The notes under the pieces are model-generated. The model saw nothing but the letters and a program-made list of their open reading frames with translations. It was not told where the DNA came from and did not search any database. A DNA stretch of 64,000 nt, from the NCBI GenBank assembly GCA_035288785.1, contig DATDZF010000009.1:330-64329 (forward strand). Reading direction: 5' to 3'. Shown piece after piece: positions 35,924 through 44,490 of the stretch. Source of the DNA: Candidatus Norongarragalinales archaeon (GTDB lineage: Archaea; Micrarchaeota; Micrarchaeia; Norongarragalinales; SBBD01). Within the stretch, counting starts at the first letter, position 1; every line of letters starts with the position of its first letter. The translations under genes were made by a program, and so were the position numbers.

Positions 35924-36898
35924 TCATTTCCTCATTTTCATAACTTCCCTTATTTTCTGGACGATGTCCCTGCTTTTCAGGCCGAATTTTTCAAGAAGCG
36001 CATCTGGGGGGCCGCTTTCCCCAAACCGGTCCAACACGCCAACGAACTTCACGGGCACGGGATAGTTTTCGGATAGCACCTCGGCAACAGCCGAGCCAAG
36101 GCCCCCAATTATCTGGTGCTCTTCTGCAGTCACGATGGCGCCCGTTTCCTTTGCAGCGGCGATAATCGCGGCCTTGTCGATGGGCTTTATGGTATGATTG
36201 TTAACGACTCTAACGGAAATGCCCTCTTTTTCAAGCTGTTTTGCGGCAACCAGTGCCTCATAAACAAGCTGGCCGCTCCCCACAACAGTAACATCCGACC
36301 CGTCCCTGAAAACTTCTGCCTTCCCTATTTTGAAGGGGGTTTCCTCCGTCGTTATGACCGGCACCTTGTCCCGGCTAAGCCGGAAATAAACCGGCCCTTT
36401 TATATCCAGCGAATGGATCGTGGCCTTCTTTGCCTCCAGCCAGTCGCATGGGGAGAGCACGGTCATGTTCGGAAGCACGCGCATGATTGCGATGTCCTCA
36501 AGTGCCTGGTGGGTTGCGCCGTCGGGCCCAACAGAAATGCCGGCATGGGCGCCGATTATCTTCACGGGGTATTCGGAATAGCAGATGCTAACGCGGATTT
36601 GGTCCCAATTGCGGCCAGGCGAGAAAACCGCGTAGCTTGCAATGAAAGGGATCTTGCCTTCGGAGGCCATGCCTGCAGCGATGCCCGCCATGTTCTGCTC
36701 CGCTACCCCCACCTCGAAGTAGCGATCCGGGTATTTTTCCTCGAACCATTGGACGCGGGTGGATTCCTTGAGGTCGCAGCAAAGCACGGCTACTTCCGGA
36801 TGGGTTTCGCCAAGCTCCAAAAGGCCCTTGCCAAGGCCGTCCCTGCTCGGGACTTTCCCTACGTTCGCGTAAATGTTGTCTGCGAGTTTTACAGCCAT
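35924..36898 (-). CDS. Transketolase, C-terminal (pyrimidine-binding) subunit
   Basis: 324 aa; Pyr and C-terminal domains of a split transketolase. Confidence 0.8.
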   Translation of the reverse strand: MAVKLADNIYANVGKVPSRDGLGKGLLELGETHPEVAVLCCDLKESTRVQWFEEKYPDRYFEVGVAEQNMAGIAAGMASEGKIPFIASYAVFSPGRNWDQIRVSICYSEYPVKIIGAHAGISVGPDGATHQALEDIAIMRVLPNMTVLSPCDWLEAKKATIHSLDIKGPVYFRLSRDKVPVITTEETPFKIGKAEVFRDGSDVTVVGSGQLVYEALVAAKQLEKEGISVRVVNNHTIKPIDKAAIIAAAKETGAIVTAEEHQIIGGLGSAVAEVLSENYPVPVKFVGVLDRFGESGPPDALLEKFGLKSRDIVQKIREVMKMRK

Positions 36899-36904
36899 CG
36901 TTAA

Positions 36905-37141
36905 TCACTTCCCGTTTTTGCCATTCAGCCCGCCGAGTGCTTTCAGCCATTTTTCCGGCCGCTCATACGAAACGGCAACAAAACTGTTTCCATCCTCCTC
37001 GTTTTCCAGGATGAGCTGGAACTGCCTGCCCATCGCATTGTACATGCAATTCCGCGTCAGGAAATGGTAATGCCACCCCTCCCCTTTGGCGGAAAATTCC
37101 GTTGCCTTGGCAACCAAATCATCCAAGCCTATTTCCCTCAA
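36905..37141 (-). CDS. Small conserved-position protein between the transketolase subunits
   Basis: 78 aa; no motif recognised; 6-nt gap to tkt C-subunit. Confidence 0.4.
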   Translation of the reverse strand: MREIGLDDLVAKATEFSAKGEGWHYHFLTRNCMYNAMGRQFQLILENEEDGNSFVAVSYERPEKWLKALGGLNGKNGK

Positions 37142-37255
37142 ATTAAAAACCCCGACTGCCGGATTTATTGAAATAGCAAAATGGCGGGATCGCCCCCCTG
37201 CCAGCAGCTTTTGATTCCCAATTCATTACTTTTTCCCTCTTGAAGCAACCCCGCG

Positions 37256-38113
37256 CTACAAGCCACCGCCCTCAATTTTTTGCCTCTCGGATTCCAATTC
37301 CTTGATCGCAAGCGCCATCTCCTGCGGATTTGGGGGCCTGCCATGCCATTCATACTTGCCCTCCATGAATGAAACGCCCTTGCCAGGAACGGTATTCAGG
37401 AGGATCATCGTGAACTTGTTTGCAGCCTTGGCGGACTGCACCGCATCCAGGATCTGTTTAATGTCATTTCCATCAATTGAAATCACATTCACATTGAATG
37501 CCCTGAATTTTTCCTCAAGCGGATCAAGCGGCATCACGCTTTCCGTATTGCCGTCGATTTGGATGTAGTTTCGGTCCATGAACACGATCAGGTTGGAGAG
37601 CTTGTATTTTGCGGCGAACATCCACGCCTCCCAGGGCTGGCCCTCGTTGTGCTCGCCATCCGAGGTGAGGCAGTAAATGAAATGCTTCTTTCCCTCCATT
37701 TTCGCTGCAAGCGCCTTCCCAACTGCTTGCGAGGTACCCTGCCCGAGCGGCCCCGATGAACTTTCAATGCCTGGGAGCGCAAGATTGTGCGGATGGCCGT
37801 GGAGGCGCGTGCCCAGCTTTCGCAAGGTCATGAGTTCTTCCTTCGGGAAATACCCAGCTTCTGCCAATGCCGCGTATTGGACCGGGACCACGTGGCCGCA
37901 GGAGAGGACGAACCTATCACGGCCATCCCATTTGGGGTTTTGGGGGTCGTGGTTCATGATGTTGAAATAGAGCGCGGAAAAGAAATCTGCAAGGTCGAGT
38001 GGGCCTGCCGAATGGCCGCTTTTTGCCTCGCAAAGCATGCGCATTAGGTCCTGCCGCAGCGTATTGGCCATGAGCCGGAGCTGCAATAGGCCGGTGACCC
38101 GCTGGAATGGCAT
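37256..38113 (-). CDS. Transketolase, N-terminal (TPP-binding) subunit
   Basis: 285 aa; TPP motif GDGE...N (SDGEHNEGQPWEA). Confidence 0.8.
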   Translation of the reverse strand: MPFQRVTGLLQLRLMANTLRQDLMRMLCEAKSGHSAGPLDLADFFSALYFNIMNHDPQNPKWDGRDRFVLSCGHVVPVQYAALAEAGYFPKEELMTLRKLGTRLHGHPHNLALPGIESSSGPLGQGTSQAVGKALAAKMEGKKHFIYCLTSDGEHNEGQPWEAWMFAAKYKLSNLIVFMDRNYIQIDGNTESVMPLDPLEEKFRAFNVNVISIDGNDIKQILDAVQSAKAANKFTMILLNTVPGKGVSFMEGKYEWHGRPPNPQEMALAIKELESERQKIEGGGL

Positions 38114-38275: not shown

Positions 38276-38440
38276 ATGGGAAAGCTATTTTGCGGGAAGT
38301 GCGGCGAGGAAAGGGCTATTCCCAAATGCTGCAACAACCAGGAGATGCGCTCGCAGGCCGCAAACCTCATATGCAACTTCTGCGGGATAATCACCTACAC
38401 GCCTTACCATTGCGGGCAGAGGATGATTGTGAAGGGCTAG
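38276..38440 (+). CDS. Small zinc-ribbon protein (54 aa, MGKLFCGKCGEERAIPKCCNNQEMRSQAANLICNFCGIITYTPYHCGQRMIVKG)
   Basis: Manual translation; CxxC...CC...CxxC...HC; A-rich promoter-like stretch upstream; below the ORF-track cutoff. Confidence 0.45.
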   Translation: MGKLFCGKCGEERAIPKCCNNQEMRSQAANLICNFCGIITYTPYHCGQRMIVKG

Positions 38441-39172: not shown

Positions 39173-39572
39173 CCCATTTGTATACCCGGAGCAGACTAAA
39201 ATTACTTGCGTTTGGGTGATGCTGCCCTACATGTAGGATTTATTCGTTTGATTCGCAAATCAAACGGGGGGTTGGTCGTTTAAGCCTTAAAACGCAGCCA
39301 TAAATACTGCCAAATAAAGAAAATACCATGAAGTGCCCGATGTTCATGCAGTATTACAAGGAAATTGGCAATGGGGTTGGAAAAACGAAACGTGGCCGGA
39401 AAGGGGGGCATTTCGGGAAAGGCAAAGCCAAGGGGCTTAAACAAAGGTAACCGGAAGCGGATTGAATCTGAGCGTATGATTTAAGAGGTTTTATAAATCT
39501 TCAAGGGCTCGAATATAAGTCCTCTGATCAATACTGGTTAATATAACTCCGGAAGGAGTGGGGTAGGTTTGA

Positions 39573-40337
39573 ATGGATGAGCAGCATCATGCAAAGAATT
39601 CAAATGAAGGGATGTACGCGGTCGCGGTTGCAATGATAGTTTCCGTGATCATACTTTCCGGGGTCATGGTTTATGCAGTCAACGGGGTAAATTCAAACCT
39701 CGCTCAGATAAATACGAATATTGCCAACCTGAAAATCAACGTCAACGTTCCGCAACAGCAGCAATTGCAAGGAACGGCAACACCGGCACCCACGCAGCCA
39801 GCGCAGCAGCCGGCAGGGCCCAATTTCGACCTGAAGAACGCGCCGGTTAAGGGCAAGGATGATGCGAAAATAACGATTGTCGAGTATTCGGACTTCCAAT
39901 GCCCGTTCTGCAGCAGGTTCTACGCGCAAACGTTGCCCTCCATACTCAAGGATTGGGTTGATTCCGGCAAGGCGAAAATATATTTCAAGCACTTCCCGCT
40001 GACCAGCATCCATCCCAACGCGCAAAAGGCATCTGAAGCGACGGAATGCGCAAAGGACCAGAATAAGTTCTGGGAAATGCACGACAAGATCTTCGAAAAC
40101 CAGGCTGCGATCCAGATTGCGGACCTCAAGAAGTATGCAGCGGACCTCAAGCTGGACACGGCAAAGTTCAACAAGTGCATTGATGATGGCGAAAAGGCCG
40201 CAGCTGTGAACGCGGACCTCCAGGAGGGGTTTGCGAACGGCGTGACGGGAACGCCCTCGTTCTTCATAAATGGCCAAAGCATCGTTGGGGCGCAGCCCTA
40301 TGAGGCGTTCCAGCAGGCGCTTTCAAGCTTTGCATGA
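39573..40337 (+). CDS. DsbA-like thioredoxin-fold oxidoreductase with N-terminal membrane anchor
   Basis: 254 aa; TM anchor then Gln/Pro linker; active site CPFC; DsbA-family C-terminal region. Confidence 0.7.
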   Translation: MDEQHHAKNSNEGMYAVAVAMIVSVIILSGVMVYAVNGVNSNLAQINTNIANLKINVNVPQQQQLQGTATPAPTQPAQQPAGPNFDLKNAPVKGKDDAKITIVEYSDFQCPFCSRFYAQTLPSILKDWVDSGKAKIYFKHFPLTSIHPNAQKASEATECAKDQNKFWEMHDKIFENQAAIQIADLKKYAADLKLDTAKFNKCIDDGEKAAAVNADLQEGFANGVTGTPSFFINGQSIVGAQPYEAFQQALSSFA

Positions 40338-40346
40338 GGGCCTTAA

Positions 40347-40877
40347 GTGAGGAAAATGGATGCGCATGCCGAGATAATGGAAGCGCTCGCGCTTACCTTT
40401 CTTGAAAGGGGATATGCCCTGATCGGGATCCTTGCAGCGGCCGCAATGGCCTGCCTCTATGTTTTCCTGCCCATAACGCTAGTCCCGGGAAATTCCCTGG
40501 GTTTTTTCCTTGAAATTACGCCATGGTGGGGTCTGCTCACAATTTTCATGCTCGCGGGTCTCATGGGCATCCTTATTGCGATGCAAGCGTATGTGATAAG
40601 GAATACCAAAAGCAAGGATGCAAAGGAGATCGGGAGCGGGATTGGCGCGTTCGTTTCCAGCATCATTTCGGGGCTTTTTGCAACGGCAAGCTGCGCCGCC
40701 TGCGTGAGCGTGCTCTTTTCCTTTATGGGGACGGCCGGCATCTTTTTCCTGCTGGAGCACCGCATTGAGATCACATTATTTGGGTTCGCAATGGTCACGA
40801 TTTCCATTTACCTCACGGCAAGGCGGATCAACAACCACTGCGAGGAATGCAAAATCACAAAGCGGGCAACGGATTGA
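40347..40877 (+). CDS. Small 4-TM membrane protein with intramembrane CAAC and C-terminal CEEC motifs
   Basis: 176 aa; 9-nt gap after the DsbA-like gene (likely co-transcribed); two CxxC motifs. Confidence 0.5.
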   Translation: MRKMDAHAEIMEALALTFLERGYALIGILAAAAMACLYVFLPITLVPGNSLGFFLEITPWWGLLTIFMLAGLMGILIAMQAYVIRNTKSKDAKEIGSGIGAFVSSIISGLFATASCAACVSVLFSFMGTAGIFFLLEHRIEITLFGFAMVTISIYLTARRINNHCEECKITKRATD

Positions 40878-41098
40878 AGCAGCACGGGGCGGGCGTAGGC
40901 AAAAATCCGTTCTCCGTTCAGGGCAGGGTTTCTGCCTTCAACAATAGGTTTTTTAAGTTTGATTTGGTAGAACTAATCTCTGATAATTGGGAAACAATAG
41001 ACTTAGGTTTAGGGTTCTCATTCTCCAAGCAAAGCATGGGAAATACCAACAGGCTATGTTTCGCATTGATCGAATTTATCGAATAGGTGATTTGAAGT

Positions 41099-42870: not shown

Positions 42871-43269
42871 TTGGTTTTGGATGGCATGGACAAACTGATG
42901 CTCCTAAGCTTGCTTGGGGCCTTGCTCGGGATGCTTACAATCCTTGCGATTTCGAGGGGGATGCAGCCGCAGGAGATGAAAATAGACAGGATCACGGAGG
43001 GCGATGTTGGAAGGATTGTTGCAATCAGGGGGAGGGTGCAGGGGATATCGGATAGCAATGGCAACTATTTCTTCAGCGTTTGTTCCACAAAGTGCCTTAG
43101 GATTGCGGTTTTCGAGAACGCTGCAAAAAGGATGGCGCAGGCCTCCACAGATTTGGGGAAACTAAGGAACGGGAATATCGTCGCGCTTGAGGGCGTTGTG
43201 CGCGAGTACAAGGATGTTCTTGGAATAGAACTTCTTGACTACAAGGCGCTTAGGGTGGAAAAGAAATGA
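42871..43269 (+). CDS. Small membrane-anchored protein with possible OB-fold
   Basis: 132 aa; N-terminal TM, then beta-rich region (GRIVAIRGRVQGISDSNGNYFF). Confidence 0.35.
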   Translation: MVLDGMDKLMLLSLLGALLGMLTILAISRGMQPQEMKIDRITEGDVGRIVAIRGRVQGISDSNGNYFFSVCSTKCLRIAVFENAAKRMAQASTDLGKLRNGNIVALEGVVREYKDVLGIELLDYKALRVEKK

Positions 43270-43299: not shown

Positions 43300-44490
43300 A
43301 TGATTTTTGAGGCGGCGGCAGGCATAATGTTTGGCAGCCTTGGCGCAATCCCATTCATCCACCCGAATTTGATACTGCAAACAATGGCGGGATTTTTCCT
43401 AGGCTCATTTTCACTTGCCATTTTTGCGGTAACCCTTTCGGTTTCACATGCGTTTTTTTCGGTGGCACCCTCATTGATGGTGTTGAATGGGTTTTCAAGC
43501 GAAAAAAACGGTTCGGGCATTACTAAAATATTCAAAATTGCGCTTGGGGCGCTGGTTTTGGCAATTGCGGTCCTGCCTTTTGCCTGGTTCCTGCTTCCAT
43601 TCCTGAAATCGGCCTGGGGAGAGAGCTACAAATACATATTTCTAGCAATAATCATATCCAATTTTCTTCCGGAAAGGGGGCCAAAGGCGGCAATTGGAGG
43701 CAGTTCCATCTTTTTGCTCTCGGGAATATTCGGAACCATCACATTTTTCCGGGGGATTGTTGCCGAGCCGCTCTTTCCCATGCTTTCGGGCTTTTTTGCG
43801 GTGCCAGCATTGCTTTTAGGGAGGGAAAACGGTTGGAAAAGGGAATTTCTGGAGGTGGGAATTGGAGATGGGGTGGTGAACTTGCCAAACAGGGATTCCC
43901 CAAGCATTTTTGGGGAGGAAAAAAGCCTTGTTCTCGCGTGCGTTTTTGCCAGCGCAATATCCACCCTGTTTCCCGCAATGACTGTGGGCGTGATGCTGGG
44001 GCTCTTGATGCTGACTTTAAGGGATGACAGGGCGCTTGGGATTGCAGTACCGGCGCTCATAGTCTCGAAGGTATTTTATGATATTGTGGCTGCGGGAATA
44101 ACCGGAAACACCAGGAGCTTTGCAAGCGTCCTTGCGCTGCCGCTTATGGAAATTTACGGGAAAACGGGGCTGCTCCTGGTTGCGGGGATGGCAATGATTG
44201 CCGGCTGCATTGCTTGCGCATTTTGCCTGAAATTCGAGAGGAGATTGGAAGAATTGCAGGCAATTATTGAAACGGAAAACTTGAGGAAGGCGATTTTGGC
44301 AGGTATCCTTATGCTCGTTTTCCTCTTTGGGGGCATGGGAGGCATTCTAATTACAGCAACTTCCGCTTCCCTTGGGGTGCTGGGGCAAAAGGCCGGGGCA
44401 AGGAGGAGCTATTTGATGGGGGCGCTTCTGGTCCCGGCGCTCATATTCCAGTTTGGCTTAAGTGAAGATGTGAAAACCGCCCTGTTTTGA
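43300..44490 (+). CDS. Polytopic membrane protein, possibly DUF112/TctA-like
   Basis: 396 aa; about 10 TM helices, Gly-rich helices; family call is weak. Confidence 0.35.
   Translation: MIFEAAAGIMFGSLGAIPFIHPNLILQTMAGFFLGSFSLAIFAVTLSVSHAFFSVAPSLMVLNGFSSEKNGSGITKIFKIALGALVLAIAVLPFAWFLLPFLKSAWGESYKYIFLAIIISNFLPERGPKAAIGGSSIFLLSGIFGTITFFRGIVAEPLFPMLSGFFAVPALLLGRENGWKREFLEVGIGDGVVNLPNRDSPSIFGEEKSLVLACVFASAISTLFPAMTVGVMLGLLMLTLRDDRALGIAVPALIVSKVFYDIVAAGITGNTRSFASVLALPLMEIYGKTGLLLVAGMAMIAGCIACAFCLKFERRLEELQAIIETENLRKAILAGILMLVFLFGGMGGILITATSASLGVLGQKAGARRSYLMGALLVPALIFQFGLSEDVKTALF

Follow-up and report, generated by a model that had tools for sequence, protein, structure and literature searches.

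The 64-kb stretch of DNA analyzed here (the window) comes from a tiny archaeon of symbiotic type, a Candidatus Norongarragalinales member of the Micrarchaeota, and carries a tightly spaced gene pair, flanked by transaldolase on one side and thermosome on the other. The upstream gene encodes a DsbA-family thiol:disulfide oxidoreductase, and the downstream gene encodes a small membrane protein with four transmembrane (TM) helices and two Cys-x-x-Cys (CxxC) motifs, hereafter the 4TM protein. Together they form a conserved, operon-like linked module with Cys pairs outside and inside the membrane, through which it probably moves either a metal ion or electrons. As judged from profile searches, the 4TM protein belongs to an unannotated family of ~400 sequence clusters that is operon-linked to DsbA and carries a near-invariant signature of one outside and one inside CxxC. 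The features of the locus are collected in the table.

The upstream protein passes the Pfam gathering score for both Thioredoxin_4 (1.5e-33, 116.8 bits against a cut-off of 23.2) and DSBA (1e-22, 81.3 bits against 25.6), and a hydrophobic N-terminal anchor (aa ~15-37) lies ahead of its catalytic domain. An earlier note on this DNA had described a membrane-anchored CPFC thioredoxin-fold protein, which these matches bear out. The anchor would tether the catalytic domain to the membrane on the outside of the cell. In the PDB, the protein matches B. subtilis BdbD (3EU3, 1.9e-19) best, together with a C. diphtheriae DsbA (4PWO), which we take to be MdbA. Next come Wolbachia DsbA and the ScsC-type copper/metal resistance proteins 6NEN, 6MHH, 4XVW and 4GXZ, with S. 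aureus DsbA and DsbG as further relatives. The window protein shares with BdbD and MdbA the Thioredoxin_4/DSBA fold and membrane tethering, as well as a CPxC active site, a GTPSF loop of the Thr-cisPro type and a further pair of Cys (C159/C202), but differs in its CPFC dipeptide, archaeal host and membrane neighbor. The thioredoxin-like (seleno)lipoprotein model Rcas_1661 (NF041057) was rejected, as its score of 150.3 bits lies below the cut-off of 190 and marks a related non-member.

The downstream gene had been given as 176 aa beginning 9 nt later, and this is correct for the longest open reading frame (ORF), whose GTG lies 9 nt past the dsbA stop. The true start is probably the ATG at 40356, because homologs begin at the equivalent Met4 (MDA/MNA) and this ATG is preceded, at a distance of 4-7 nt, by a GAGG; the product would then be 173 aa, with an 18-nt gap to dsbA. 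This 173-aa product is identical to an NCBI hypothetical protein from a Candidatus Norongarragalinales (Micrarchaeota) archaeon.

Features of the dsbA-4TM locus, in coordinates of the window (aa, residue positions in the respective protein; K+R, Lys plus Arg)
Feature	Coordinates	Strand	Detail	Basis
TATA-like box TTTATAAA	39490..39497	+	in the 128-nt intergenic region 5' of dsbA	sequence
Shine-Dalgarno-like AGGAG	39554..39558	+	14 nt 5' of the dsbA ATG	sequence
DsbA-family thiol:disulfide oxidoreductase gene	39573..40337	+	254 aa	Pfam, PDB search
CPFC active site of the DsbA-like protein	39900..39911	+	aa 110-113	sequence
Four-TM double-CxxC membrane protein gene	40347..40877	+	longest ORF 176 aa, GTG 40347	
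GAGG ribosome-binding-like site	40349..40352	+	4-7 nt 5' of ATG 40356	sequence
P-G-N motif	40485..40493	+	aa 47-49, exofacial, outer end of TM1	alignment
M79-Q80-x-Y82	40581..40592	+	cytoplasmic half of TM2	alignment
First CxxC (CAAC)	40692..40703	+	aa 116-119, outer end of TM3	alignment, K+R counts
(Y/H)138-R139	40758..40763	+	start of TM4; matched to the 'PYR' loop motif of MerT in the alignment	alignment
Second CxxC (CEEC)	40839..40850	+	aa 165-168, 5 residues past the RRI end of TM4	alignment, K+R counts
Hairpin GGCAG...CTGCC plus T6 run	40922..40954	+	45-77 nt past the 4TM-gene stop	sequence

Conservation was counted in a 136-member alignment reaching down to ~22% identity with the window 4TM protein. 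Mean K+R content across these members is high at the N-terminus (3.7), in the TM2-TM3 loop (3.3) and in the C-terminal tail (3.8), and low in loop 1 (0.5) and the CxxC/loop-3 segment (0.2). Because of this bias, the positive-inside rule would place the first CxxC and the PGN loop outward, on the same side as the DsbA domain, and the second CxxC in the cytoplasm. An AlphaFold2 model built on a deep alignment (predicted local distance difference test, pLDDT, 87.4; predicted template modeling score, pTM, 0.81) features four long helices plus short ones, with helical segments at residues 6-19, 21-45, 51-57, 60-86, 92-113, 117-123, 125-137 and 139-163. The CAAC, previously set inside TM3, is present and conserved, but the model puts it at the outer boundary of the membrane, where a short helix begins just past TM3, rather than mid-helix. 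The C-terminal CEEC was correctly recognized as a motif.

The four Cys of these motifs are near-invariant (C116 in 136/136 members, C119 in 135, C165 in 133 and C168 in 124), and the sole other Cys of the window protein, C36, is unconserved. The dipeptide inside the first CxxC is small, [AS][AS], with [TS] just before the first Cys; such a dipeptide resembles those of metal-binding CxxC loops, as in HMA motifs. Conservation extends to the P-G-N motif (P 118/136, G 119/136, N 122/136) and the TM2 motif (M 93/136, Q 85/136, Y 83/136), whose M79, Q80 and Y82 may supply polar or thioether groups along a transmembrane path. Further conserved positions are P42, F53/Q54, A114, F126-L127-G128-x-G130 and F134, followed toward the C-terminus by (Y/H)138-R139, S153, Y155 and R159-R160-I161.

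A word-indexed search with the 4TM protein returned only seven relatives. A profile search of 1.84 billion cluster representatives (clusters at 50% identity) retrieved 407 with E<=1e-3, of which 263 reach <=1e-10 and 45 reach <=1e-30. Lengths fall almost always within 160-185 aa, typically ~170 aa, and both CxxC motifs, ~49 residues apart, are found in 135 of 156 retrieved proteins, the exceptions being mostly fragments. The longer members likely reflect mis-called starts, low-complexity tails and, in one case, a zinc-ribbon-like tail, and no informative domain fusions were seen among them. By the depositors' own labels, the named members derive from Micrarchaeota, Nanoarchaeota, Woesearchaeota and Diapherotrites, plus one metagenome-assembled genome (MAG) labeled 'Methanosarcinales' and one 'bacterium'; all are annotated 'hypothetical protein'. 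Neither Pfam (2025) nor NCBIfam (2026) holds a family for the window protein or any of the 136 aligned members, only scattered sub-threshold matches, and searching PDB sequences with the family profile turned up no meaningful match. Our literature searches found no description of the family, and tblastn of two members against plasmids gave no match.

The 4TM protein recalls DsbB and VKOR in its small size, its four membrane helices, the CxxC close to its outer face and the DsbA-family gene next door, and the earlier note had proposed it as their analog. Direct comparisons do not sustain this proposal. For DsbB (PF02600), the window protein has no Pfam match, 2/136 members match at E 0.15, and hhalign of E. 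coli DsbB (template sequence checked against PDB 2HI7) with the family profile gives 0.7%. VKOR (PF07884) has no Pfam match either, and hhalign gives 1.3% against genuine VKORs from two of the relatives' loci described below, L029 and L030. As the note had stated, the Cys pairs of these enzymes are absent: the conserved Cys are confined to the two CxxC motifs, none lies in outer loop 1 where a DsbB-type shuttle pair would be expected, and the VKOR signature of a loop Cys pair plus Ser/Thr and a TM4 CxxC is lacking. Fold comparison with the solved DsbB/VKOR four-helix bundles gave no match, and the 4TM protein has an additional cytoplasmic CxxC, for which an oxidase of their type has no need. 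DsbD_TM/CcdA (PF02683) fares similarly, with no Pfam match, 0.6% by hhalign against the CcdA-like protein of locus L010, and faint matches to NCBIfam DsbD in 2/136 members; these proteins have 6-8 TM helices with a single mid-membrane Cys in each of TM1 and TM4, whereas the 4TM protein has four helices and CxxC pairs on opposite faces. A CGCxxC membrane protein from an ArsR operon, used as a negative control, gave 5.6% over 9 columns, and this protein is not MerC-like. By these comparisons the 4TM protein is unrelated to DsbB, VKOR and CcdA.

The sole recurrent remote resemblance is to the Cys-pair hairpin of Mer transporters, a consistent lead at the level of sequence profiles that falls short of established homology. 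A MerC profile aligns to the 4TM family with an hhalign probability of 62.5%, or 72% with the C-terminal half only, and the single sequence of Tn501 MerT (template 100% identical to the annotated plasmid gene) gives 51.5% over 68 columns; the DsbB, VKOR, CcdA and CGCxxC controls range from 0.6 to 5.6%. For calibration, bona fide MerC against MerT yields 3%, and MerT against MerF 87%. Both real scores lie ~8 standard deviations above column shuffles of the template (MerC 32.0 against 12.0 +/- 2.5; MerT 28.9 against 11.4 +/- 2.2), and 0/100 shuffles reach the real value in either case. The first CxxC aligns with MerC CAAC (C23/C26) and MerT C24, and the MerT alignment places the Cys pair, FxG turn, YR motif, RRI and cytoplasmic Cys all in register, with C165/C168 opposite MerT C76/C82 when a four-sequence MerT profile is used. 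Pfam MerC (PF03203) matches the window protein at E 0.86 (10.6 bits against a cut-off of 27.6). Among the 136 members, the sub-threshold NCBIfam matches include MerTP in four (best E 0.16), MerT (NF010314) in three (0.019) and MerC in two (0.014), and no other transporter or oxidoreductase model exceeds these.

The resemblance extends to the layout of a Cys pair in a TM helix combined with a cytoplasmic Cys pair. Like the 4TM protein, MerT and MerC have two vicinal Cys in a TM helix that runs inward-to-outward, followed by a return helix whose end carries RRI-like basic residues and by a cytoplasmic Cys pair; MerC even carries CAAC, and the Mer system likewise has an adjacent, separately encoded outer CxxC protein, MerP. 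In the textbook Mer model, Hg(II) passes from MerP to the MerT TM1 pair and on to the cytoplasmic pair. Transport of Hg(II) depends on the TM1 pair (PMC5715351). The 4TM protein differs from MerT in its extra N-terminal TM hairpin with the PGN motif, the absence of MerT TM3, and a CxxC instead of CC. Its partner has a DsbA/thioredoxin fold rather than the HMA fold of MerP, no merA/merR lies nearby, and its hosts are DPANN archaea, whereas a 2012 survey reported Mer transporters to be absent from Archaea (PMC3466566).

To place the pair in context, ~21 distinct loci were read, of which 18 were informative; a search with a narrower family alignment contributed 8 genome loci and 7 metagenome loci, and DsbA neighbors were called by phmmer against the window DsbA. 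In 12/18 informative loci, representing nine different neighborhoods, the 4TM gene has a DsbA gene as its neighbor, and the DsbA-adjacent members are 35-66% identical to the window protein. The two genes are directly adjacent in the window and in the syntenic Micrarchaeota contigs L007 and L008 (transaldolase, pair, thermosome), and also in L001 (whose flanks differ), L004 (with overlapping genes), L015, L023, L029, L030 and L036. Their order is reversed in L016, and one Cys-rich gene separates them in L027. As small genomes carry few DsbA genes, the contribution of chance to this adjacency should be negligible. The linkage proposed in the earlier note is therefore conserved and tight, and no Pfam, NCBIfam or PDB family assigns the 4TM protein to a well-known unrelated group. 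The gene lacks an adjacent DsbA in the remaining six informative loci (L014, L022, L024, L031, and the distant subfamily of L009 and L010/L011).

Within the Woese/Nanoarchaeota-type loci L029, L030, L027 and L016, the pair forms part of a more extended gene cluster. Its order in L029 and L030 is a P1B ATPase (with CPC, DKTGT and HP motifs), Lit, DsbA, the 4TM protein, a 151-aa thioredoxin-like protein, a cupredoxin lipoprotein, DoxX, VKOR (Pfam 3.2e-21) and glutaredoxin, and partly overlapping subsets of this order are found in L027 and L016. Locus L016 additionally carries Lgt, another thioredoxin-like lipoprotein and a cupredoxin whose CxxxCxxxHxxM motif is of the CuA type. The VKOR-thioredoxin fusion of Synechococcus (3KP9) has a thioredoxin domain to which the 151-aa protein is homologous (5e-20), so that the VKOR there has its own partner. 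Because lit2/lgt2 of Firmicutes are copper-induced and co-transcribed with copper-resistance determinants (PMC8275575), the four clusters look, by analogy, like copper-response islands. In the distant subfamily, CPMC replaces CAAC and the 4TM gene is the last of an operon comprising an ArsR-type regulator (with a CxxxCxxC tail), a CcdA-like gene, a methyltransferase (L009 only) and membrane proteins; an ArsR-type regulator near the 4TM gene was seen only here. No homolog of the accessory genes of these copper-island and ArsR clusters is found within the 64-kb window.

Several neighbors merit description in their own right. The short VKOR (130 aa) and the separate membrane-anchored thioredoxin-like protein amount to a split version of the cyanobacterial VKOR-thioredoxin fusion on DPANN-type contigs (L029 3991-5709; L030 3877-5621). 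Bacterial-type Lgt and Lit lie next to lipobox cupredoxins and a Cu-ATPase in MAGs labeled Nanoarchaeota/Woesearchaeota, mirroring the lgt2-lit2 islands of Firmicutes (Lgt/Lit coordinates: L016 156-896 and 3906-4517; L027 1340-1972; L029 2015-2677; L030 1897-2526). The Cys-rich gene of L027 (2817-3455), on a Woesearchaeota-type contig, encodes an anchored 212-aa protein with clustered Cys (CCSP, PCCCKC, CGGSGHAGH) and no Pfam match. Two of the ArsR-operon membrane proteins are unannotated with N-terminal CPHC motifs, one of them with repeated HMVEH motifs, and the other features a CGCxxC in a TM helix, its L009 copy being fused to a cupredoxin-like domain (operons at L009 2104-5510, L010 691-3567 and L011 585-3461). 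Among the loci lacking an adjacent DsbA, L014 features a VanZ-like gene 5' and a 377-aa FAD-dependent oxidoreductase 25 nt 3' of the 4TM gene. A BNR/Sortilin-type beta-propeller is adjacent upstream in L024 and found one gene further, on the opposite strand, in L014 (propeller/FAD neighbors: L014 4535-5668 and 5665-6561; L024 2977-3885). These neighbors may point to other partners. On one Micrarchaeota contig (L013/L021 1-743), an IS605 OrfB-type transposase lies at the contig end just 5' of the 4TM gene, in the place expected for dsbA.

Signals flanking the window pair were read from the sequence alone. The TATA-like box is a possible archaeal promoter element, and the hairpin with its T6 run possibly marks the end of a two-gene transcript. 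The promoter scan used was for bacterial sigma-70 and is uninformative for archaeal DNA; a bacterial terminator scan, equally uninformative for an archaeon, did not flag the hairpin. Between the transketolase and transaldolase genes, a conserved ORF encodes a 54-aa mini-protein with eight Cys (CxxC...CC...CxxC...C) in three Micrarchaeota genomes (window 38276-38440, + strand; L007 1448-1612; L008 2409-2573), and looks like a zinc-ribbon-type small protein. The transketolase itself is split (window 35924-38113, - strand) into halves of 285 aa (N-terminal) and 324 aa (C-terminal), with a conserved 78-aa ORF between them (36905-37141, - strand) that is present in L007 too. On the 3' side of the thermosome lie genes for a 396-aa polytopic membrane protein (window 43300-44490, + strand) and a ~130-aa OB-fold-like protein (42871-43269, + strand), both without clear annotation and both syntenic in L007 and L008.

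Our favored interpretation is that the pair constitutes a putative Mer-style Cys-pair relay that would carry a thiophilic metal and have the DsbA-like protein for an outer partner; we hold it tentatively, at somewhat less than an even chance. The cargo would most likely be Cu(I), with Hg(II) as the alternative. The surface CPFC of the anchored DsbA-like protein would provide the outer thiol site, and the metal ion would be passed by ligand exchange between this site, the outer CxxC and the inner CxxC, following a route along the small-residue TM3 and the conserved Met/Gln/Tyr/Ser positions. The DsbA-like protein would thereby play a MerP- or ScsC-like role as an outer metal-binding, thiol-maintaining partner. 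This model presumes direct thiol contact between the two proteins, and its cargo and direction of transfer are likewise suppositions. The 'metal-handling module' offered as an option in the earlier note thus gains from the weak but register-consistent MerC/MerT similarity and from the copper-island and ArsR contexts.

A metal relay is favored because a pure oxidase would be redundant where VKOR and its thioredoxin partner are present, and a pure reductant conduit would be redundant in the CcdA context, whereas a metal relay would be redundant in neither. It is favored also because the only remote sequence signal is to Mer, the first CxxC encloses a small [AS][AS] dipeptide, and the gene occurs in copper-island and ArsR contexts. 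Moreover, DsbA-like ScsC proteins, which are among the solved relatives of the window DsbA, bind Cu(I) tightly (PMC8900818; PMC10907172), with sub-picomolar affinity (PMC8900818). Several observations weigh on the other side. The Mer similarity lies under every curated threshold, and its HH probabilities are moderate and profile-dependent: with the four-sequence MerT profile the value drops from 51.5% to 12.5-18%, in unchanged register, and MerF shows no consistent similarity to the family by hhalign or shuffles. The DsbA-like protein is nearest to the oxidases BdbD and MdbA, its fold is unlike that of MerP, and oxidases of the BdbD/MdbA type normally have redox, not metal, partners. No merA, merR, merP or HMA gene was seen in any of the ~18 loci, and neither the window nor the syntenic Micrarchaeota loci carry a metal gene close to the pair. 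Finally, the survey is small, and its loci lie on MAG or metagenome contigs.

The same Cys geometry that suits metal hand-over should suit disulfide exchange equally well, and the pair could instead conduct reductant in the manner of DsbD/CcdA/ScsB, from thioredoxin or glutaredoxin through the C-terminal CxxC and the outer CxxC to the DsbA-like protein. The latter would then act as a reductase or isomerase, e.g. repairing copper-induced mis-oxidation or keeping cupredoxin/CuA Cys reduced. Electrons that pass from the cytoplasm to a DsbA-type protein move downhill in thermodynamic terms, and the position of one CxxC in the cytoplasm and one on the exofacial side, together with the tight linkage to DsbA, fits such a conduit. 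So does the content of L029 and L030, which already possess an oxidizing VKOR and thioredoxin, contain no CcdA, and carry a glutaredoxin gene in the cluster. There is also a precedent in the Scs system, where a copper-induced DsbA-like ScsC operates with a membrane partner, ScsB (PMC10907172; PMC3322552); as in DsbD/CcdA/ScsB with ScsC, the 4TM protein would link cytoplasmic thiols to an outer DsbA-like protein, and a copper-island context is common to both. The small membrane protein ScsA of Salmonella scsABCD, encoded in the same copper-induced Dsb-like operon, is a further parallel in that it has a membrane-embedded CxxC (PMC10907172), but it is predicted to have two TM helices or to be a lipoprotein and carries a single CxxC (CLAC); no relationship to the 4TM protein is evident, though none was tested. 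Against a reductant conduit stand the lack of similarity to DsbD and CcdA described above, an architecture unlike the two-single-Cys, 6-8 TM design, the co-occurrence with a CcdA-like gene in the L009 and L010 operons, and the kinship of the DsbA-like protein with oxidases. Overall, we consider this explanation rather unlikely, ranking it second.

The remaining explanations are both improbable in our assessment. In a DsbB/VKOR-analogous oxidase, the outer CxxC would re-oxidize the DsbA-like protein and deliver electrons to a membrane acceptor, e.g. quinone, leaving the C-terminal CxxC a structural or regulatory part. In favor of this proposal, the 4TM protein is small and four-helical, has a CxxC at the outer boundary, and is encoded beside a DsbA whose closest relatives BdbD and MdbA need a membrane oxidase; the conserved polar residues N49, Q54, Y/H138 and R139 near the CxxC could form a head-group site, and no VKOR or DsbB is found in the 64-kb window, a weak point given that the window is a small part of the genome. 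It is nonetheless the least supported of the relay readings, in view of the negligible hhalign values for DsbB and VKOR, the missing outer-loop shuttle pair, a near-invariant cytoplasmic CxxC that it does not explain, and the genuine VKOR with its thioredoxin partner in the same cluster of L029 and L030. Only marginally less improbable is a shared envelope function without direct thiol exchange, in which the 4TM protein would, e.g., serve in membrane assembly or anchoring, or sense redox state or metals, with its Cys binding a structural metal or Fe-S center. The six informative loci without an adjacent DsbA would be consistent with this, as would a family whose named members are all annotated as hypothetical proteins. 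The presence of exactly two near-invariant CxxC motifs on opposite faces argues against it, as do the short gaps or overlaps with dsbA and an adjacency that is kept despite inversion of gene order.

We know of only two membrane families, DsbB and VKOR, that recycle DsbA-type enzymes, and of only one, DsbD/CcdA/ScsB, that supplies them with electrons; to our knowledge, DPANN archaea also generally lack quinone synthesis of their own. The 4TM protein could be viewed as a third, quinone-independent class of DsbA membrane partner, unrelated to either DsbB/VKOR or DsbD/CcdA. In this proposal, which we consider rather doubtful, a Mer-like Cys-pair hairpin would connect the DsbA on the surface of DPANN archaea directly with the thiol pool of their cytoplasm.

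Whichever cargo it carries, the 4TM protein represents a compact new putative trans-membrane Cys relay. Its family ties the surface-protein biology of DPANN archaea to copper handling, through islands that bring together Lgt/Lit, cupredoxin lipoproteins, a Cu-ATPase and VKOR. If the 4TM protein is indeed a third class of DsbA partner, it would show how ultra-small archaea manage extracellular disulfides, and would suggest that metal-thiolate and disulfide relays can evolve into one another.

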